Positions 1-28,475 of a DNA stretch of 36,302 bases are shown one piece after another. Every line of letters begins with the position of its first letter. The stretch's first letter is position 1. The position numbers and the translations under genes were made by a program. The notes beneath the pieces were generated by a model, which saw nothing but the letters and a program-made list of their open reading frames with translations, was not told the DNA's origin and did not search any database. This DNA is from a virus (taxonomy: Duplodnaviria; Caudoviricetes), in IMG/VR virus record IMGVR_UViG_3300038674_000376, positions 1-36,302 of that record, one strand, 5' to 3'.

Positions 1-3000
1 ACTGAATTATTAAATGATATACCAGAAGCAGAAGAGTTTAAATCTACAGTAGATAATCTATTACTTACATTAGAAACATTGAATAATAAGTATAATCTAA
101 TACTTGAAACTAAAACTAAAGAATTTGTAATAAAGTATGCTACTGATGCTGGTTCACCATTTGTTAATGATTTAGTAGAATGGCTAGATAATCCATCAAA
201 TGATATATCATTCTTAGGTTATTTTGTAGGATTAAGTTCATCTACAAATAATGAAATGATACGTATAATGGAAAATATTATACGTAATCAAAAGAATGTA
301 ACAGATATGGAGACGTTATATGAAGGTAAAAATATAATAGCATTGTTAAACGAGGCTAAGAAATCATATGGCAGCGATATAATGTCGGCATTATAGGAAT
401 TCAGTAAAGATGGTAAACGTACCGGTTATTTTGTAAGAGATAGAAATTATGGTATGTTCCATGATGCGCTTAGTAAAGAATTAGAAAGACTTGCATAGAA
501 ACATAATCTGGAGAAAGGTAGTGATGGTAAATATATATTACCGGAAGATACTGTAGAATTAAGGAGATATACTAAGGATTTAAATAAATGGTATGCTAAA
601 CATGCTGACCGTAGATATGTACCAGAATACTATGAACATAAGAATCGTATATTATCATAGGCTACAATAGAAGCACAATCAAATATATAGAAAAGAATTA
701 ATCAGATATTAAATGTAATTACAGTAGATGGTATAGCTCGTGAAGATTTACTAAGTGATTCTCAACTAGATGAATTAGATAGATTATATGCAGAGCGTAA
801 AAACTTAAGTAATTTCTATAATTTCGATGGTTCACGTAAGACTGGTGAAGATTTAGATATAGCTTTAGAACTTAGAGAATTCAATGAATTAGTAAATGAA
901 AATGTTAAGTATAAAACTGATTATGATAAGTTCAATAAGGCACGTAATGCCATAATTAAGAAATACGGTGAAGATTCCCCAGAGTTTAAGAAATGGGTAT
1001 CACGTAATGTTGTTTAGGTGTACACTGATGAATTTTGGTAGTTATTAGATAAACTACAAGCTCCTACATTTGCCACTAAAGAAGACTAGGAACTACATGA
1101 TGAATTGGTAGGTAGACGTAGAGAATTACACAAGTTATATCGTAAAAGAAATTCATTAGAAATTGATGTTACAAAACTCAATGAAGATGAAATATAGATG
1201 CTTAGAGAATTAGATATAAAAATAGCTAATTTACGTCAATACGTTAAAGTTGATGATGATTCTGTAACATTCAACGATGTAGCCAAGATAGTAAATACTA
1301 AAGAATACTTCAAAGTATATCAACAGAAACAACAAGAAGCACAAGATAAAAATGACCCAAGTATATTCACGGATTGGTATGAGGCTAATCATTATGAGGA
1401 TAGACGTGGTAAGATGCACCCAGTTTCAGTATGGACATATATACAACCAGTTAATATGGCTCATATAGAATATCAACCAAGTAGTAAATGGTCTGAACCA
1501 GATTTAAGTAATTCAAATTGGATTAATAAAGATTATGAACCAAATAGCGAAGAAGCCATATAGCCAAAGAAAGCATTATATGATAACAGTGATGCATTTA
1601 ATAAGATTAAGAATAACAAAGAAGCATTTGCATTATATAATGCTTTGATTGATAGTATGGATAGATCTTTAAGTAAGTTATCATTCCTAACACATTCTAA
1701 TAAATATAGATTACCACAAATGACTGCTAGAACAATGCAGATGGTTGGTAGAGAAAGTAATATATTCAAAGGATTGGGTTATATGGTAAAAGATGAATTT
1801 ACTATTAAGGATGATGATAAAGATTATGTACCTACATTTGATAGACGTCCCGATGGTTCATTGATTAAGTTAATACCAACTAAGTATTTAAAACCACTAG
1901 ATAATCCAAGTATGATTTCCGCAGATACTGTTGGTTCTGTAATAGAATTCTTCAATATGGCTGAGAATTATAAACAGATGTCTAAAGTTAAAGATGATCT
2001 TGAAATGTTATTGGATAGAATGTCTCAATTGGAATACAATAAAGATAATAAATTCAAAGCAGCTGGTACATTAAATGTATTTAAGAAAGCAGAATCATTA
2101 CTGGATATGCATTTATATGGTAAGCGTAAAAATCAAGTAGAAGCTACGATACTCGGTAAGAAGATCAATATTACTAAAGCATTATCAAAAATATACGGTG
2201 TAGCTGGTACGATTAACTTAGCATTTAATATGTGGGCTATGGCAACTAATGCTATTACAGGTAAAGGATATACTGTAATGGAATCTACACTAGGTAGGTA
2301 TTTCAATAAACAAGATTTTGCATGGGCAGAAAAGAATTACTATAATTCATTACCTAAAATTATGGCAAACCTTGGTAATCCAAATGATACTACTAAATTA
2401 ATGTTTATGTGTCAGTTAAATCAAGTTGCTAGGTCTAATGCAGAAACATTTAGTAATTTGGATTAGAGTCCTGTTTTAAGAGCAATAAATCAACATTTTT
2501 GGTATAATGGTTATACTGCTGGTGACTTTGCTGTAAAGAGTACTATATTAGGTGCTGTGTATCATAGCTATAGATTAGTTACTACTCCAGATGGTTCAAA
2601 ACAATTCATGACTCGTGAGGATTATGTAAGTAAATACTATACGGATGCTCCGTAGACAGGTAGGGCTAAATTTGATGAATTTGATGTAACATTATATGAT
2701 GTATACGAATAGGATAAGAATACATATAAAGTTAAAGACGAATATCGATAGTATGTTACTGCAAATTTAACTAATATGGTTAAGAATAAGATACAAACTA
2801 TTGCTGCTAGAATTGATGGTAATATTAATGATACAGATAGAGCTGCAATTCATGCTAATGCTTACGCTTAGTTCTTAGTAATGCACCGTAACTTTATGAT
2901 TGTTGGTTTACAAGATAGATTCAAAAAGACTCAATTTAATTATAACACTGGTGTAGTAGAAGAGGGTATATATAGATCAATACCAAAGTTATTTAATGGT

Positions 3001-3507
3001 GCATTTTCTGACGGTGGATTAAATGTGATACATAATATGATACAGAATTATCATAATATGCAAGATTATGAACAATACGCTGTACGTAAAGTAATTACTG
3101 AATTAGGTACAATATTGGGTGTATCATTACTTGTATCGTTATTATTAGTGCCATTAGCGGATGATACAGATGATGATTGGGCACTTGAAGCATTAACTTA
3201 TATTGCAATGCGTACTGCATTTGAATTTAGAACATTATACCAACCTTTGGAATTAACTGCTTTATTAAATTCACCATCGGCTGCATTCTCTTCAATTACA
3301 AATGCCGCTGAGATGTTGAAGTTAATATGGATACCAAACTACTTTAGTGATAACAGTAGCCCTTTCAAAGAAATATCAACTGGTGCATATAAAGGTATGC
3401 CTAAGTTATTGAGAAACTTTATAAAGGTAACACCGTTTAAGAATGTAATTGAAGCATCAGATCCAAAAGCAAAACGAAAATATCTGGATAACCAGTTAGC
3501 ATTCTAA
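1..3507 (+). CDS. Giant virion cargo/ejection-type protein, 3' part (5' end outside window), amber-recoded (TAG probably Gln)
   Basis: Frame 1 is open from base 1 to TAA 3505-3507 except for 14 TAGs (394, 496, 658, 688, 1015, 1039, 1087, 1195, 1561, 2464, 2653, 2710, 2749, 2869), with no TAA/TGA. ORF-track pieces 79-396, 1198-1563, 1645-2466 and 2881-3507 are all in this frame. There is a hydrophobic segment near the C-terminus (LGTILGVSLLVSLLLVPLA). Its position, converging on the replication module, matches the giant RNAP/cargo genes of crAss-like phages. Product is inferred. Confidence 0.85.
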
Positions 3508-8355: not shown

Positions 8356-8371
8356 ATTAAAAATATTTAAG

Positions 8372-8445
8372 TTCTTTAGGTAGGACTCGAACCTACAACC
8401 TACAGATTCGTAATCTGTTATTCTATCCAATTGAACTACTAAAGA
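8372..8445 (-). tRNA. tRNA-Arg(ACG)
   Basis: TCTTTAG/CTAAAGA acceptor, GTTC/GAAT D stem, ACAGA-TTACGAA-TCTGT anticodon arm, GTAGG-TTCGAGT-CCTAC T arm; CCA not encoded. Confidence 0.92.
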
Positions 8446-16377: not shown

Positions 16378-16386
16378 TGTTATTTG

Positions 16387-16458
16387 TTGCGGAGAGTGGA
16401 TTCGAACCACTGATTTCCAGCTTATGAGGCTGGCGAGATACCACTTCTCTACTCCGCA
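16387..16458 (-). tRNA. tRNA-Met(CAT), partly initiator-like
   Basis: TGCGGAG/CTCCGCA acceptor, GAGA/TCTC D stem, CCAGC-CTCATAA-GCTGG, AGTGG-TTCGAAT-CCACT; followed by A-CAA (no CCA). Confidence 0.92.
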
Positions 16459-18446: not shown

Positions 18447-19007
18447 TTAATCTTCTGGTTCAATAAATAACGAACCAATTGGGAAACTTCCGCAACCATT
18501 GTCCAAAACAACGTGAACCGGAATTGTATCTCCATTATTACGTTTACCCGCATTTTTGTTTGAAGCCTGCCGGCGTGAAGCTTCTTCTACATCCTCATCG
18601 GTAATGTAGTTAGATTTAAAAGTACCTTCTGTCACACCAAACATTGCTGCTTGAAGTAACATGTCTACAACTAAGTCATATTGTCTACTATCGATAGCCT
18701 TCTCAATGATATTTTGAGCAAGATATCTTTTTAAATTTGCACCAATTTTACCAGGTTTGGCAATTTTGTTCAAATTTGCAGCAATACGAAACGCAACCAT
18801 AGCGAATTCTATGACACGTTTATCTTCTGGAAACAAACTATTCCACCAATTCTTTGGTGTTCTACCTATTAGTACTGACCCATCGTCTTGTACTACAATT
18901 GTTTTCGGTAAATCACCATCCATTAGTATATCCTTGTTATAAGACGGATCTTCTAACAAATGTATTAATAGTTTTTTTCTAGAATCACTAATCAAACTAA
19001 TTTGCAT
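18447..19007 (-). CDS. Hypothetical protein
   Basis: 186-aa ORF with an A-rich leader. Confidence 0.8.
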   Translation of the reverse strand: MQISLISDSRKKLLIHLLEDPSYNKDILMDGDLPKTIVVQDDGSVLIGRTPKNWWNSLFPEDKRVIEFAMVAFRIAANLNKIAKPGKIGANLKRYLAQNIIEKAIDSRQYDLVVDMLLQAAMFGVTEGTFKSNYITDEDVEEASRRQASNKNAGKRNNGDTIPVHVVLDNGCGSFPIGSLFIEPED

Positions 19008-19020
19008 AGTTTAATTAAAA

Positions 19021-19587
19021 TTATCCCAAGTTCTTGTAATACTCGGTAGTCTGTGCAATCATAAGACTGTTCAGATCGGTAAGAGCACGAGATTGGTTCA
19101 ACAAATCTTCAGCAAGCTTTTCAAGCTCGGTAGAAGTTTCTTTATTAATAGCAACGATTAGTTCTACTAATGACTTTCTGTCATTAAAGAAATAGGGACG
19201 ATCAACATCTTCAGCTTTTGCTAAGTTGATTGCTTCATTCAGAGCCTCACGAGTAGGTTTCTGAATTTCCGGAGAGGTGGACAATTTAAATGTCAACTTC
19301 GGATCATTATTAAACATTACCTGTAATTCGTTAGTGAGAGGATTCTCAACTGGCGAAACAGCAAACAAGTCAATGACTTCGAGATACACTTGCTTTGCAG
19401 CATTCTTCAACATGAAGTATTTACCTTCACGAACCTTATCGTTATGCTTGAGGTCGATATTACCAACCCTAACTACACACAGGGTTTCACCTGCGAGGCT
19501 ACTGTAGGCTTTAAATTCAGCACGCTTAGCATTGAATTTGCTCTGCATACTGGGGTCAAGGCCTTTGAAATTATTTTCTTTACTCAT
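19021..19587 (-). CDS. Hypothetical protein
   Basis: Start reassigned to MSKENNF (ATG 19587), preceded by AAAAAGGATTTAT; 188 aa. Confidence 0.8.
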   Translation of the reverse strand: MSKENNFKGLDPSMQSKFNAKRAEFKAYSSLAGETLCVVRVGNIDLKHNDKVREGKYFMLKNAAKQVYLEVIDLFAVSPVENPLTNELQVMFNNDPKLTFKLSTSPEIQKPTREALNEAINLAKAEDVDRPYFFNDRKSLVELIVAINKETSTELEKLAEDLLNQSRALTDLNSLMIAQTTEYYKNLG

Positions 19588-19599
19588 ATAAATCCTTTT

Positions 19600-21630
19600 T
19601 GATTCAACTCCTGATGGAGTCGCGATTATAACTAATTTAATTAACACTAAAAAGAGGTGCAAACACTGTATTTTGTATCCACTGGTAATTAATTCACGAC
19701 GCCATTGTCGCTCGCTTTAAGAAAACTTTGAAAACGAATTATATTACGATGTACCCATTCAAGGGATAACAGTGTTGCAATTCAAATTCTTTTGATATAT
19801 TTCTGTAAATTTTCTGAAATACATTTGAAAAATATATATTATAGCCAAATCAAAACAACTTACTAGAACGTAGTGTTTTACACTACTCTGCATGCTCCCT
19901 TTCGGACACTTTACTCATTAGACGAATGAGTCAGCAGTACTTCACTTATTTATCCTTATACTATTTTGCTTCATGTTCGAGATTTATTTTATAACGTATC
20001 GCACATTGATATAAATAATACCTAACTTCCGTTATTTTTAGTTATCACTTTTCATACCATATATCACGTTAAGCAATATATAGGGGAATCCAATGGTAGG
20101 ATATACTAAGCCCATCCGAAAAACACGTATCGTGTAAAGCTAAACTATATGAAATTATCGGTGAATTTTACTTCAACGGTCGTTTAATAAAACGTTACCA
20201 AAATCCTTATATAATTGCTGTCAATCTTTCATGACACCCACAATTATAATGCTTTATCGAGCACTTTCGAGGTCCTAAATGTGATTAAATTGAATGTATT
20301 TTTGGATTTCCACCAATCATCCCTAATGAGGGGAATCAGCGATCTTTTTCGACAAATATGTTGCGCATATTTACGTAAAAAGGTTCAATGGGTTGCAATA
20401 CTATAATGTCACATTACTCCAAGGCCGCATCAGTATATCGATCGTGTGGATATATTTATCCTAGCGGGTGACTTCCTTGCATTTATTTGCTTTGTTTTAG
20501 CTGGTTGCTTCAGCGTCCCACAGAGGTTTTACGTTCTTCTGATTCTCAGTCAGCAAGCTACCTCTATTGCAATCATATATATACTTACTTTATCTTGGAG
20601 TAGATAATCTGTTATATATACTACGTGCTTGGCTTTAATTTCGATCCGATTCAGGATGTTTCGGGAACCTTGTTTCCATTTGAATGAGTTTGGAGAACTG
20701 CTTTTTATGCTTTTGCGCTGTTTATATCATATTACAACAATATATGATATACCAATATCCAGTAATAATGCGTACTCAGATCGCAGAGGTTGATTATTCA
20801 TAGGTTAATATTACCTTTATAGTCGTATAAATCAACAAATGGACGACTTTATTAAAAATTAATTACAAGTTCACCATGCATCTTATATCTCACACTGACA
20901 TATACGATACACTGATTGTTGCAAATCTAAAATATTAAACAAGTATTTGACACGTAATTTACTTCTCAGATACTAACTCTAACGTTCGTATCATTACGCA
21001 TAGGTTTGTCACCTAATCCAGTTAACCTGTCATATAGCTTACATACAACGTAATACTATATGGGTCATAGCTACTCAGCCATGTCTTTTTTAATATTTAA
21101 TGGTGCTACTAATTTTTAATGAAACTCCTTCATAAAAGTAGAGTATTTAAACTGCGAAACACTGTCTAAACTAGCCCAGCTGGCTACTACTTTGAACACT
21201 AAGTTGTTGTTTTTATATACTTTTTATCGCATAATGGGGGCTTTGGACACTCCCTGGAAGACGCTTCACGGTCTGTAGTTTTGGGCCACTCGTGTTGAAT
21301 TCCTTTTTGATTCATCTTATGATTAAGAAGCGAATTCTATAGAGGTAAACGATACCCCTTGAGTTTTTTAGCCGGTGGTTCCGGACTTACGTGAAATTCA
21401 TTATAAGCTAATCGCCAAACGGTTCTCATTGATACTCATAACATGGGCCAACTCTCACTCTCCCATTTTCTTAATGCTTTTTCAGTAAAAAACAATAAAT
21501 ACTACATTAAGTTATCATAGTAATTACATTATCGTTGATAATCTTTCCTATCCTGTATTGCTTTATAATCTATTATAACTGATCAGGTATATAATAAACC
21601 TTTGATTATTTATAGCATTTATATTCCGAT
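19600..21630 (-). ncRNA. ~2 kb ORF-free, densely base-paired region: candidate very large structured RNA (or RNA cluster)
   Basis: No - strand ORF >=60 aa inside; more than 20 hairpins, long-range stems and a predicted pseudoknot (see findings). Strand inferred from flanking genes and GNRA loops. Confidence 0.6.
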
Positions 21631-21635
21631 TATAA

Positions 21636-22004
21636 TCATTCTAGTACCGGATTGGTTTTATCTTCACCAATATTTGCTAATTGAAGAATTGAATTTTTGG
21701 GTGCTTCTTCAAGTTTAGCAAATCTATTTAATAACTTATTTCCAAACCTCGTATCTACAACATACGTTGGTTTTTCAACAGTCACGGTTACGTACTTGAT
21801 GACAGGTTTGCCATCGTTAATATTCTCAGCTGTCACGTTAACATCAATCTTCACATCGTTTTGACGTGGAACATCGATAAAACGTGGGACAATTTGTGTT
21901 TCACTAGCAACTGCTGTTTCAGTTGGTGTGAAATCAAAAAGTCCACCAATCGTACTCCCAATAAAGAGTACAATTAGTGTTATGATTAGATTACTTCGTT
22001 TCAT
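21636..22004 (-). CDS. Hypothetical secreted/membrane-anchored protein
   Basis: MKRSNLIITLIVLFIGSTIGGLF signal/TM-like N-terminus. Confidence 0.75.
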   Translation of the reverse strand: MKRSNLIITLIVLFIGSTIGGLFDFTPTETAVASETQIVPRFIDVPRQNDVKIDVNVTAENINDGKPVIKYVTVTVEKPTYVVDTRFGNKLLNRFAKLEEAPKNSILQLANIGEDKTNPVLE

Positions 22005-23418
22005 TTGCCGGCTCTTCTTTTGCAGGTTCTTCTTTCTGAGTTTCCTCAGTTTTAATTTCTTCTACAGAAGTTTCGGTAGCTTCAACTGGAGTATCTTCTA
22101 CGTAAAATCGTTCAACAGGGTATTTAAACGCTGTTGCAATCGATTTCATTTTCGTAATTAACGCTTCAACTGCATCACCACCGGTTAAATCAATACCTAA
22201 GTTTGCAGCTAGGGTAGTTTTTAACTTCAATGGTTGAATATCTACCTTGAATGTTTCATCAAGATGAATATCCACAGCTTTGTTCAATTTTTCATTCGGT
22301 TTAGCAAAGATTTCTGCTATCTTTTCTATAAACACATCATGTTTTGCAATATGAATGTCATATAACCTACCATAAAATGAAGATGAGAACGTTCTGTTGT
22401 TTTCTTGAGACTCAACTTCAGAACTTCTTGACACAAACAACGTGATCATGTAAGATAATTCTTCATCGGAAAGCACATTTTCAGGAAAATGATTCTTCCG
22501 AAGTGTTGTGAAAATCGTAAACAACTCATTATTAGCGATAAATGAGCCCGAAATCATTGACATGTAACAACTCAATAGCAAACTTGATTTGCTCTTTACT
22601 AGTGTGTTACCGCCCTTCTTCGGATCAGGCTCGAATATTGTGAATTTTTGCAACATACATTTCATTGCCTCTTTTGTGTCAGAGATTTTGTATGCCTTCT
22701 TCACTCGATTTAGGCCTTCAATAAAATTGACTGCCATTGCCTGCATTCCATCAGCTTTGGTATTTTTTCTTGCCAAGGCTGCGGTAATATTTGCCAACTT
22801 TTCTTCCTCTGTCATATCTGCTGAAATATCAGGGATAACAGTTTGCTGCGCTAACTTGACTTCCTTTTTTGCAGTTACCTCAATTTCTTCAGGAACTTCA
22901 TCAAATTTAATCTTAGTTTGCCCATCTGTACCAGAGGGTAGCAACTTTGTAGATATCCCGAACATACTGAATAATTCTTCAGCATATTTTTTAGCGGTAT
23001 CGTTTTGCATCAATAAGCCCATTTCTTTTCCTTCGGCGTTGATTTGAGCATATGCCCTAATCGATTCGAAACAAATTGACATGTTTACCATGTAATTGAG
23101 TGAATCTGCAAGATTTTCAGGAATTAATCCCCTTTGCAATCTACTATCGGTTAATGCCGCTAATTGAACACGAGCATCAGGACTTAGCCGTGCTCCGTCT
23201 TTACCAACCATCTTGGCTGTAACCACATCTAATGTGATTTCATCCTTTTTAGGAGCTGGTATGATTTTTGGGGTTGCTGCTGCCACTTCTACTGGTTTCT
23301 TTTCTTCTGGAGTTTTCACTTCAGGAGCTTTTGTTTCTACCGTTTTTTCTACTGGTGATTCAACTTTTTTTACTGATTTGTCACCTGTTGCTTTTTTGTT
23401 GTTATTTTTCTTTGCCAT
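21991..23418 (-). CDS. Hypothetical protein with low-complexity K/E/P termini
   Basis: 475-aa ORF. Confidence 0.85.
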   Translation of the reverse strand: MAKKNNNKKATGDKSVKKVESPVEKTVETKAPEVKTPEEKKPVEVAAATPKIIPAPKKDEITLDVVTAKMVGKDGARLSPDARVQLAALTDSRLQRGLIPENLADSLNYMVNMSICFESIRAYAQINAEGKEMGLLMQNDTAKKYAEELFSMFGISTKLLPSGTDGQTKIKFDEVPEEIEVTAKKEVKLAQQTVIPDISADMTEEEKLANITAALARKNTKADGMQAMAVNFIEGLNRVKKAYKISDTKEAMKCMLQKFTIFEPDPKKGGNTLVKSKSSLLLSCYMSMISGSFIANNELFTIFTTLRKNHFPENVLSDEELSYMITLFVSRSSEVESQENNRTFSSSFYGRLYDIHIAKHDVFIEKIAEIFAKPNEKLNKAVDIHLDETFKVDIQPLKLKTTLAANLGIDLTGGDAVEALITKMKSIATAFKYPVERFYVEDTPVEATETSVEEIKTEETQKEEPAKEEPANETK

Positions 23419-23488: not shown

Positions 23489-23854
23489 TCAAGAATCATT
23501 AATGTATTCGGTAACTAGGTTACCAATTAGTACCGGTGCTATTAAAAAATAGTTGAAGTTATTGTCACAACTAACCATAATATTACTCTCAAAGTCATAG
23601 TTGGTAATTACATTCTCTACAAAAGATGTAATTCCACTTTGAGTAGTCTGGTTAGCTTTTTTAACTTCAACATTTTCCTTGGTATTATTCCATTTAGCTA
23701 TCTTGTCCTTAGCTAAACTAATACCAGCACCAACGATGATACCGAACAACAAGATGGCCATTAGCTTGTTGAACTGTTTCGAACTTTTGTAGTAGTATTT
23801 GCATACCAAAAAGATAAACAAAATACCTACTAATAAAAGAATAAAATTCATCAT
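23489..23854 (-). CDS. Hypothetical membrane protein (2 TM)
   Basis: Two hydrophobic segments: FILLLVGILFIFLV and LMAILLFGIIVGAGI. Confidence 0.75.
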   Translation of the reverse strand: MMNFILLLVGILFIFLVCKYYYKSSKQFNKLMAILLFGIIVGAGISLAKDKIAKWNNTKENVEVKKANQTTQSGITSFVENVITNYDFESNIMVSCDNNFNYFLIAPVLIGNLVTEYINDS

Positions 23855-23881: not shown

Positions 23882-24442
23882 TTATGTTAATTGATTTATG
23901 ATTTCTTTTAATCTTACTCTGGCTTTACTTAAAGTACTTTTTAGTGTACTCTCAGGTATGTCGAGTTCGTATGAAATCTGTTTATAAGATTTCCCGTCAA
24001 TTCGGGCTTGGATCAAATCACGATAGCGTTTCCTTAGTTTAGGTAAGGCTTTCATGATTATTTCAACATTTTCTTTAGCTATATTCTCATCTTCTGGTGA
24101 TGCAGATAGTTCATTCAATTGAATTGTACTTTCCTCATCGTCAATATAGTTGTTTAATTTCTCATTTTTCATCTTTCTAATGTAGTCAATAGAAGTGTTA
24201 ATTGCTATTGTTTTTATCCACATTTCAAAAGATATATTATCTACAAAAGATTCTATTTTTTGATAGACTTTTGTAAATGTAATAGAAATTAAATCGTCGG
24301 CAATATCTTTATTTTTTACAATATTATATATCGTCAACCATATTGTTTTATAAAAATGATGGTATATTTTAGAAAATGCTTTTTCAGACCGATTGATTTT
24401 AACTTCCTCAACTAATTTGTTGATTTCTGCTTTATCTATCAT
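23882..24442 (-). CDS. ECF-type RNA polymerase sigma factor
   Basis: Region 2 (ADDLISITFTKVY...SFEMWIKTIAINTSIDYIRK) and region 4 HTH (KSYKQISYELDIPESTLKSTLSKAR); start MIDKAE at 24442. Confidence 0.9.
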   Translation of the reverse strand: MIDKAEINKLVEEVKINRSEKAFSKIYHHFYKTIWLTIYNIVKNKDIADDLISITFTKVYQKIESFVDNISFEMWIKTIAINTSIDYIRKMKNEKLNNYIDDEESTIQLNELSASPEDENIAKENVEIIMKALPKLRKRYRDLIQARIDGKSYKQISYELDIPESTLKSTLSKARVRLKEIINQLT

Positions 24443-24459
24443 AGGTCTTAATTTTATGT

Positions 24460-24489
24460 GATATACAGTTAAACCAATAACTGTATATC
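24460..24489. terminator. 12-bp hairpin between genes (terminator or processing site)
   Basis: GATATACAGTTA/TAACTGTATATC; no clear U-tract. Confidence 0.45.
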
Positions 24490-24497
24490 GGAGCAAA

Positions 24498-25115
24498 CTA
24501 AAATGGCAAACAAAACTCAGCATAAGCTTTAAGCTCTGCTTTTCTACGAACTTCGTACAATTCACGAAGCCAATTTGACCACATTATTTGTTCTTCGTTT
24601 GTCAATATAGAAATACTAAAAATCATCGTTACGATTACTCGCATACTTATGTCGTCGGTCATAAGTTTCCTGCTATCAGTGTTTCCATAATTAAAACTTT
24701 TCATTAATTTAGTGTATCTTCTAACTATGTCTTTTACTTTTTGGTCAAACATAGCTAGATTACATTTCCCGTTATATCTCCATAATGGAAGATATGCATT
24801 GTAATCAAGTTCACAATCACACGTCTTGTATGGTATATTATATGGAGTATTTCCAATATATGTACAAGCCATATTTTTTACTTTCCTATGATTAAGTTTA
24901 ATAAACTCAACTCCTGTAAAGTTAAATTTATGTCGATCTTCTTTAATAAACATATTCATTATAGAAAATCTTATGTCTATTGACATTTGTTCCGAATCAT
25001 AAGAGTTTAGCTTTGTAACATATCCATTGTTTTTTGTTTCAACGACTTGGTTTCCTACTATTATTTTACGGTTCGTTTTTCCGAAATACCGTAAATCATA
25101 CACCCTTGATTGCAT
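24498..25115 (-). CDS. Hypothetical protein (ends CLPF, TAG stop)
   Basis: 205-aa ORF; stop is TAG at 24498-24500. Confidence 0.75.
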   Translation of the reverse strand: MQSRVYDLRYFGKTNRKIIVGNQVVETKNNGYVTKLNSYDSEQMSIDIRFSIMNMFIKEDRHKFNFTGVEFIKLNHRKVKNMACTYIGNTPYNIPYKTCDCELDYNAYLPLWRYNGKCNLAMFDQKVKDIVRRYTKLMKSFNYGNTDSRKLMTDDISMRVIVTMIFSISILTNEEQIMWSNWLRELYEVRRKAELKAYAEFCLPF

Positions 25116-26063: not shown

Positions 26064-26158
26064 TGATCAAATGGGCATCCGTTTACCTATTGAGTAGCTC
26101 AAATTTGTTAATTATGGGCTACTGGAGATTCGAACTCCTTTTTTAGTACATTTGATCA
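26064..26158 (-). ncRNA. Circularly permuted tRNA-like RNA (T arm, closed acceptor-like hairpin, D-like loop)
   Basis: TGATCAAATG ... GGAG-TTCGAAT-CTCC AGTAGCCCA-loop-TGAGCTACT CAATAGGTAAACGGATGCC CATTTGATCA. Confidence 0.6.
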
Positions 26159-26160
26159 AT

Positions 26161-26230
26161 TGGGATAGAGCCGGACTCGAACCGGCGACCTTAACTTTTA
26201 CATTACGCTCTACCCCTGAGCTATCTATCA
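26161..26230 (-). ncRNA. tRNA-like RNA with truncated anticodon arm and encoded CCA
   Basis: GATAGA/TCTATC-CCA, GCTC-AGGGGTA-GAGC D arm, GCCGG-TTCGAGT-CCGGC T arm; anticodon arm only 14 nt (TAATGTAAAAGTTA). Confidence 0.75.
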
Positions 26231-26231
26231 A

Positions 26232-26456
26232 GGACACTTTATTTTACTAGGGTGATAGTCCAGACCCCGAGATTACTTTTAGGCACTCAGCCTAGTGTAA
26301 TCATTGATTAACATTTTGCCAGTTATGGCTTTATTGACCTATTCTATTTCACAATGTAGCAATCAAATGCCTATATGCCCCGTTTTTTAATGTTACTTGT
26401 GGAGCATGAGGTATCGAAACCTCGTCTTACTACTGATTAATAGACCTAGCAGTCAA
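26232..26456 (-). ncRNA. ssrA: Circularly permuted (two-piece) tmRNA
   Basis: Acceptor piece ...GTAGTAA-GAC-GAGGT-TTCGAT-ACCTC-ATGCTCC-A (ends 26400); 18-nt spacer; coding piece starts GGGGCAT (26381) giving G3:U70; ATAACT then GGC resume codon, tag GKMLINDYTRLSA-TAA (26320-26279); downstream pseudoknot. Confidence 0.85.
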
Positions 26457-27288: not shown

Positions 27289-27302
27289 AAAGTTTAATTA
27301 AA

Positions 27303-27437
27303 AGTGATATTTGTGCATATTTGTGTATCTTATTTTGCACTACCCCCTTTCCTTCGTCTAATTATCTCATAAGAGACATTGCCGTTGAATAGCCAGCGTA
27401 TCGCTACGTTAGGGTTCTGGGTTTTTAAATATCACTA
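27303..27437 (-). ncRNA. Candidate structured leader RNA
   Basis: 10-bp closing stem AGTGATATTT/AAATATCACT enclosing TAGC/GCTG and TGTCTC/GAGATA hairpins. Confidence 0.45.
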
Positions 27438-27476
27438 GATTTGGGATTGACCACCATTTTGTAAAGTTTTAATTAT

Positions 27477-28334: not shown

Positions 28335-28475
28335 GACTACCTGATTTTTACGTCCGCACGATCAATAATAACAACGTTCGATTCGAAATCATTTGCTAGC
28401 AATTATTGTTATTATATACGCCCCACAGGTTTGTCATCTTCTGAAGACTATATCTATTCTCACGAACCGATATAG
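28335..28475 (-). ncRNA. Candidate multi-stem structured RNA
   Basis: CTATATC..TTC-GTGA-GAA..GATATAG hairpin; nested GAC/GTC, ACCTG/CAGGT, CGTA/TGCG and ATAATAACAA/TTGTTATTAT stems. Confidence 0.55.

Follow-up and report, generated by a model that had tools for sequence, protein, structure and literature searches.

A conserved, covarying non-coding element of about 2 kb in Suoliviridae phages, predicted to be a giant RNA that partners with the adjacent 188-aa protein

The window analyzed here is a 36,302-nt stretch of phage DNA (IMG/VR record IMGVR_UViG_3300038674_000376) and is part of a Crassvirales genome. It contains a 2-kb gap between genes (21635-19588) that is very probably a structured RNA under selection. 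A preliminary description of this DNA had proposed a very large structured non-coding RNA at this place in a Crassvirales genome, and that proposal is now supported by synteny, covariation, and frame-breaking indels. Our favored explanation, held with somewhat more confidence than doubt, takes the gap for a non-coding element that is conserved and covaries among the Suoliviridae. It would be read from the minus strand as one multi-domain RNA, assemble into a particle with the adjacent 188-aa protein, and be subject to feedback control. Large ornate RNAs are rare, and their functions are mostly unknown. The Suoliviridae are common human-gut phages, and about 2% of the genome is given to this element in every subfamily sampled.

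Read along the minus strand, the locus is headed by a phage sigma factor gene (23882-24565), followed by genes for a 121-aa hydrophobic protein (23489-23854), an uncharacterized 475-aa protein (21991-23418), and a 122-aa protein with a hydrophobic N-terminus (21636-22004), which borders the gap on its upstream side. Downstream of the gap, on the same strand, lie genes for proteins of 188 aa (19021-19587), 186 aa (18447-19007), 164 aa, and 253 aa, and then those for DNA polymerase and helicase. In annotated relatives, a gene similar to the 186-aa gene, by size only, also follows the 188-aa gene. Pfam and PHROG assign a family to the sigma factor and to no other protein of the cluster. A protein atlas returned no usable match for the 188-aa or the 475-aa protein, and a viral scan with a single protein as the query returned none. 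Phage BS162P1, which gave a weak sigma-factor match, lacks the locus in the 19 kb that was fetched. When the gap itself was used in a DNA search, matches were confined to eight crAss-like records, and all classified records that were fetched are Suoliviridae.

The preliminary description had noted about 2 kb without a credible open reading frame, and indeed the gap holds no ORF longer than 63 aa under translation table 11. The longest M-to-stop frames are 45, 99, and 90 aa under tables 11, 15, and 4, respectively. A gap of 1954-2547 nt is present in 163 of the 171 sequences examined (132 distinct once duplicates are removed, in 11 species clusters); the other eight are missing one flank, and every sequence that has both flanking genes has the gap (163/163). 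In a larger set of loci, the 5′ block and the downstream gene were found in 302 of 319, covering 15 species-level clusters. The gap is also present in all 20 annotated relatives fetched, 19 of them labeled Suoliviridae and the other being Dulem virus 42. These cover the Uncouvirinae, Bearivirinae, Boorivirinae, Loutivirinae, and Oafivirinae, five subfamilies across which interval length is steady at 1.9-2.55 kb; Crassvirales families other than the Suoliviridae were sampled only indirectly. Among GTDB contigs, 7 of 40 pattern hits were true matches, all with this gene layout, and one of them is binned with Segatella copri. Across 15 species, nucleotide identity is 0.55 in the gap versus 0.46 in the upstream coding DNA. 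Within species, 159 of 178 indels break the frame, and the remaining 19 are multiples of three.

These data bear on the possibility that the gap acts as DNA, either as a replication origin or another DNA-level element, or that it encodes recoded small genes. In favor of it, small or antisense ORFs are annotated inside the gap in some records, and the folding energy of the gap is at chance level. However, the indel spectrum argues for non-coding sequence, the code 15 ORF calling proposed as a check in the preliminary description left no gap ORF conserved under tables 11, 15, or 4, and the pseudoknots described below are compensated. A replication origin, named there as a finding that would refute the RNA, is rejected since GC skew turns near position 3500 and not at the gap. 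We consider a DNA-level or recoded-gene explanation highly improbable, and a structured RNA remains the preferred reading. Antisense ORFs of 160-168 aa occur in the gap of two Oafivirinae (L324, 3599-4081; L332, 3477-3983) and are weakly alike (E 8e-4); in the sister genome cr124_1, the longest ORF on that antisense strand is at most 82 aa.

The single sequence does not establish the structure of this RNA, because both the stem count and the minimum-free-energy (MFE) z-scores of the gap are at chance level. All nine stem pairs named in the preliminary description are exact reverse complements and lie at or within the positions given for them. The density of such stems, which had been read as a signal, is unexceptional: the gap holds 40 perfect stems of at least 7 bp versus 33 ± 6 in shuffled sequence (maximum 46), and other 2-kb windows hold 30-60. 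The MFE comparison suggested there was also unfavorable, with z-scores of 150-nt windows in the gap lying mostly between -2.5 and +2, weaker than those of the flanking genes. Windows of 400 nt in the gap gave z-scores of -0.4 to -3.3.

Covariation provides the evidence for structure. Helices of at least 4 bp with 80% of sequences paired were scored by the number of extra Watson-Crick pair types. In the gap, 11 helices score at least 5 and 7 score at least 6, as compared to means of 1 and 0 in eight column shuffles and 1 and 0 in a parallel-run control. With 27 species, six helices score at least 6, versus one. A coding control, which is an imperfect match because its identity is lower, affords three helices at the lower threshold and two at the higher. 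Both of the latter fall in a separate covarying RNA structure inside the 3′ end of the 121-aa gene (23556-23662, minus strand), a short way upstream of the 475-aa gene. It is composed of nested helices with scores of 9 and 13, has an MFE z-score of about -4.6, and probably represents another cis element of this cluster. RNAalifold models of four domains, built from 15, 13, 8, and 8 of the 15 species, picked for carrying or aligning in the domain, show changes on both sides in 8/14, 14/16, 21/56, and 8/20 pairs. In an all-against-all test of single pairs, underpowered at 15 sequences, one pair exceeds all 12 null maxima.

Three elements were also examined by permutation, in windows picked by eye after the alignments had been viewed and with relatedness uncorrected. 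The pseudoknot named in the preliminary description pairs better within its own species (16.2) than across species (12.4), a difference reached in 0 of 2000 permutations, with 21 of 27 species anchored, a count that retains probably wrong picks in L170 and L333. The 3′ helix gave 0/5000 permutations (11/27 species anchored), and a pseudoknot in domain 1 gave 2/5000 (19/27 species). Most of the stems proposed from the single sequence are borne out by comparison: those at 19662/19769, 19870-19886, and 21031-21062 covary, as do the 20821/20843 stem and the 20789/20830 pseudoknot that it accompanies. The stem within 20344-20382 corresponds to a covarying helix around 20354-20372, and that at 19913-19931 is conserved with one compensatory change. 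In alignments judged by eye, the 20723-20751 stem and the GAAA and GAGA tetraloops proved to be specific to the window.

The predicted RNA occupies 19588-21570 on the minus strand, with its 5′ end estimated from conserved blocks and its 3′ end possibly entering the leader of the 188-aa gene. From about 21550 to 19600, it contains covarying helices together with two pseudoknots. Its 5′-most covarying hairpin (21538-21551) scores 7. Domain 1 contains helix P1 (21470-21511; 21511-21505 with 21476-21470), which scores 8, and hairpin P2 (21466-21462/21447-21443), whose loop pairs with 21394-21391 to give a pseudoknot (21391-21466). The P2 region surrounds the near-invariant GAGAACCG (21427-21420), which appears as GAGAACC(G/A) in 26 of 27 species. 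The conserved TATGATAAC (21509-21522) was considered as a genome-wide promoter and rejected, as it has one exact copy and near matches at chance level. Domain 2 carries an AUCA module (21295-21340) that is the predicted protein-binding site, and a covarying hairpin with a conserved UCCAAA loop lies at 21236-21255. In L280 and L311, domain 2 has a second UCCAAA hairpin, and in L280 the AUCA module is relocated into an insertion.

A helix formed by 21204-21201 and 21127-21124 closes a variable subdomain (21124-21204) and contains the sole pair above all null maxima. It is followed by a central junction (20950-21085) with two hairpins (21079-21070 and 21013-21003) that we take to be T-loop-like. 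These hairpins are absent in two species, and in cr6_1 (L004) they occur in reversed order, at offsets 517 and 639, resembling a circular permutation of the domain. The H-type pseudoknot with species-specific compensation (20789-20848) comes next, and then a two-hairpin segment (20486-20552) discussed below. A GCAA-loop hairpin and a hairpin with the conserved GGUGGAAAUCC, the latter present in 22 of 27 species, occupy 20304-20372. The 3′ part comprises a covarying three-way junction and hairpin (19860-19946), which two sister species appear to lack and which has diverged in the Boorivirinae, and the 3′ helix identified by permutation (19662-19776). Domains are gained, lost, and reordered between species. 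An ACATGT palindrome, absent from the window, occurs at an interval offset of about 1010-1290 in 15 of 27 species (L001, L004, L006, and others); as RNA (ACAUGU), it is possibly a dimerization loop. The most divergent interval, that of cr118_1 (L323), lacks the GAGAACCG core and, by the scans used, both AUCA modules; it still has the gap and the central pseudoknot.

The preliminary description had placed GAAA and GAGA tetraloops on the minus strand while noting that some wobble pairs favor the plus strand. The wobble count favors the minus strand: helices chosen by Watson-Crick pairs alone contain 28 G-U versus 17 A-C appositions when read as minus, a modest bias. This bias, the loop motifs, and the direction of the genes together lean toward the minus strand as the favored reading. 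None of the listed datasets containing the sequence is on record as RNA. In three of four sequencing runs, reads cover all 30 bins, and no gap-skipping joint is among the joints listed; these three are flagged as probably DNA and are silent on transcription either way.

None of the helices with a span above about 110 nt exceeded the controls, so continuity as one molecule is a prediction. The absence of a very long-range helix would also be expected of an array of smaller independent RNAs (decoys, sRNAs, or small ribozymes) that are co-transcribed and then cut apart. The loss, duplication, and reordering of modules, and the other small RNAs in this genome (a hatchet ribozyme, RAGATH-9, and tRNAs), are likewise consistent with such an array. 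However, the total length is held at 1.9-2.55 kb in five subfamilies, the order of the core motifs is kept, and no Rfam family reaches threshold in the gap of the window or of 10 relatives. An array is therefore unlikely in our judgment, and we continue with the interpretation of a single multi-domain RNA.

The observation that connects this RNA to a protein, and one that is new here, is that a module inside the RNA is repeated before the start of the downstream 188-aa gene. The sequence AATCAAAAAGG has exactly two exact copies in the window, at 21312-21302 and 19604-19594, and its one-mismatch count is at chance. Both copies share a layout consisting of an outer helix, CG, a 4-bp hairpin with an AUCA loop, a second AAUCA, and AGG. 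One is the module in domain 2, and the other (19587-19632, minus strand) lies just before the 188-aa start codon, over the translation initiation region of that gene, and is a predicted operator. Both module hairpins covary. A model built from 11 downstream copies, the window's own included, detects the internal copy with 27.8 bits (E 4e-4), and its next match has 13.2 bits. In 10 held-out genomes, the same model finds the downstream copy in nine and the internal copy in four of five Loutivirinae. A pattern scan of 30 species detects the internal module in 20, the downstream module in 22, and both in 15, as compared to about four matches in total in shuffles. In 15 of 30 species, then, the large RNA shares its module with the initiation region of the gene, as expected of an autogenous operator.

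The main result against this model is the absence of the internal copy in 10 of the 30 species, namely nine Oafivirinae or Oafivirinae-like intervals and cr118_1. The downstream copy is retained in 7 of these 10. An AUCA motif occurs in the P2 loop of domain 1 in L324, L326, L332, L091, and L096, and this loop may serve as a substitute site in intervals without the internal module. The outer helix of the operator is weakly supported by permutation (59/5000, 15/27 species). Shine-Dalgarno sequences are not read by Bacteroidia ribosomes (PMC7797042, PMC9976891), and the AGG may therefore be retained as part of the module. Closing of the module would still cover the bases directly 5′ of the start codon.

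A second interpretation is that the entire gap is a giant cis-acting 5′ leader that controls transcription or translation of the downstream genes and DNA polymerase, with no free RNA accumulating. Such a leader would lie on the same strand as the flanking genes, as the gap does, and the structure extends to the start codon. The minus strand of the gap has no terminator-like site. The weak resemblance of one segment to GP20-b, a cis-regulatory motif, points in the same direction. However, an element of 2 kb whose near-invariant core sits 1.8 kb away from the start codon is far larger than leaders are known to need. An operator copy 1.7 kb upstream also fits a binding site better than a switch. 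We regard a giant leader as fairly unlikely. RNA mimicry is a way in which ribosomal proteins and other RNA-binding subunits autoregulate, and the mimicry between the two modules makes a giant ribonucleoprotein with the 188-aa protein as a subunit the best reading. The preliminary description had suggested an RNP with the flanking uncharacterized proteins; that suggestion stands as a prediction, for which the duplicated module provides specific support in the case of the 188-aa protein.

The structure model of the 188-aa protein (pLDDT 86) comprises a helix, a five-strand beta domain, a helix, and a C-terminal helix of 50 residues. Its structural kin, seven matches at E ≤ 0.001, come from Suoliviridae records only, a range that matches that of the RNA. 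Comparison of the whole protein with solved structures across the PDB returned only coiled coils, through the long helix (Z ≤ 6.4), and solved RNA-binding folds gave no significant match. The order of secondary structure fits an Sm/SH3-like barrel, for which the best Foldseek E values are 0.29 and 0.54. A small beta-barrel dimerized by a coiled coil would suit the two AUCA motifs. In L328 (cr53_1), the downstream protein (1821-3020) is about twice as long, with 399 aa, and an HNH endonuclease gene comes next.

Our proposed mechanism can be stated as follows. Transcription of the gap on the minus strand would yield a single multi-domain RNA, and this RNA would assemble into a particle with the 188-aa protein encoded directly downstream. 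The protein, which probably dimerizes through its C-terminal helix, would hold the two AUCA motifs of a module. While RNA is available, bound protein would be consumed in the particle; surplus protein would bind the module on its own message, close the outer helix, and block initiation. In ribosomal-protein operons, feedback on the message balances protein and RNA, and the proposed loop would balance the 188-aa protein against its RNA in the same manner.

The role of the particle is the most speculative part of the proposal. T-box RNA and RNase P use paired T-loops to bind the tRNA elbow. The particle may be a scaffold that the two small hydrophobic proteins of the cluster tether to the membrane, much as OapA does with OLE, a bacterial RNA of about 600 nt. 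Being made between the sigma-factor and DNA-replication genes, it may act on host translation or RNA by means of its paired T-loop-like hairpins. This guess is made because of the hydrophobic neighbors, the OLE precedent (PMC12286853), and the T-loop-like hairpins. Extended to all Suoliviridae, it would describe an RNP machine of a kind not seen before, built on a single prokaryotic RNA of about 2 kb that is neither ribosomal nor an intron, with autoregulated subunits, a membrane anchor, and paired T-loops engaging tRNA or the host ribosome, a picture that we consider conceivable yet doubtful.

Neither the gap of the window nor those of 10 relatives match an Rfam family at gathering score, including in the cmscan comparison that the preliminary description had proposed, and the GOLLD, ROOL, and OLE covariance models give no match in the gap at E ≤ 10. 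The segment at 20486-20552 has a sub-threshold resemblance to GP20-b (RF03003; 31.2 bits, E 2.5e-4), below the gathering score of 36.2 required for membership. It is 67 nt, covers 3% of the element, and has no counterpart at threshold in the 10 relatives. A large catalytic RNA deserves mention, for instance an unrecognized ribozyme that is intron-like or processes tRNA and uses the 188-aa protein as a cofactor, given that large complex bacterial RNAs are often catalytic (PMC5737381). The pseudoknots, the T-loop-like hairpins, the nearby tRNAs, and the permuted tmRNA near the element in relatives are consistent with it. However, no group I intron, group II intron, or RNase P model matches the gap even at E ≤ 10, the position is intergenic rather than within a gene, and the element is present in all genomes with both flanks (163/163), unlike a mobile intron. 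Group I and II introns and RNase P RNA are accordingly rejected as identities, and a catalytic RNA appears quite unlikely.

Among known large RNAs, GOLLD is similar in being very large, ornate, and phage-encoded, with tRNA genes nearby and a conserved core plus a variable part; it differs in being about 830 nt and forming an RNA-only cage (PMC12286853), whereas the predicted RNA is about 2 kb, is best conserved at its 5′ end, and carries a likely protein site. If it is one RNA, its length of about 2 kb would amount to more than two GOLLD lengths and would more than double the size range that GOLLD set. ROOL is likewise phage-associated, with several junctions and pseudoknots; it averages 581 nt and has no known protein partner (PMC5737381, PMC12286853). 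The statement in the preliminary description that GOLLD and ROOL are well under 2 kb agrees with these lengths. Unlike either, the predicted RNA has a named candidate partner and a 46-nt predicted binding module, so the proposal can be tested immediately, in vitro and by cryo-EM, with no need to culture the phage.

OLE with OapA, OapB, and OapC (PMC12286853) is likewise a large RNA that belongs to a fixed gene cluster and has protein partners, of which one associates with the membrane, and two small hydrophobic proteins flank the cluster here; it differs in that the gap has no Rfam match and the cluster proteins, save the sigma factor, have no Pfam family. Autogenous control by ribosomal proteins resembles the present case in that a single module appears both in a large RNA and where translation of the protein's own gene begins. 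It differs in that the 188-aa protein has no known family or solved fold, the gap RNA is not rRNA, and the binding is predicted. Phage K lnc001 and lnc002 are long intergenic phage RNAs, lnc002 being about 1.15 kb by table coordinates (PMC9241854). They come from an unrelated host and phage and were found by expression, whereas the gap RNA was found by covariation, the comparison being by description only. A search of full texts, covering part of the subscription literature, found no description of the gap RNA, and none of six non-coding terms occurs in the main text of PMC7886860. Fragments of the gap may already be catalogued as short motifs, for instance in the motif sets of PMC5737381 or in later catalogues of structured phage RNAs.

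Several other RNAs lie in the window. A candidate permuted two-piece tmRNA was noted by eye at about 26120-26430 (minus strand), with a tRNA-like gene of unreadable anticodon inside it (26162-26230, minus strand); neither ARAGORN nor Rfam calls a tmRNA in the window, and relatives do have one at that position. tRNA-Arg(ACG) lies at 8371-8445 and tRNA-Met(CAT) at 16386-16458 (minus strand). A hatchet ribozyme (28339-28448, 84 bits) and RAGATH-9 (27302-27450, 90 bits) are also on the minus strand, and RAGATH-9 or RAGATH-22 is found nearby in relatives.
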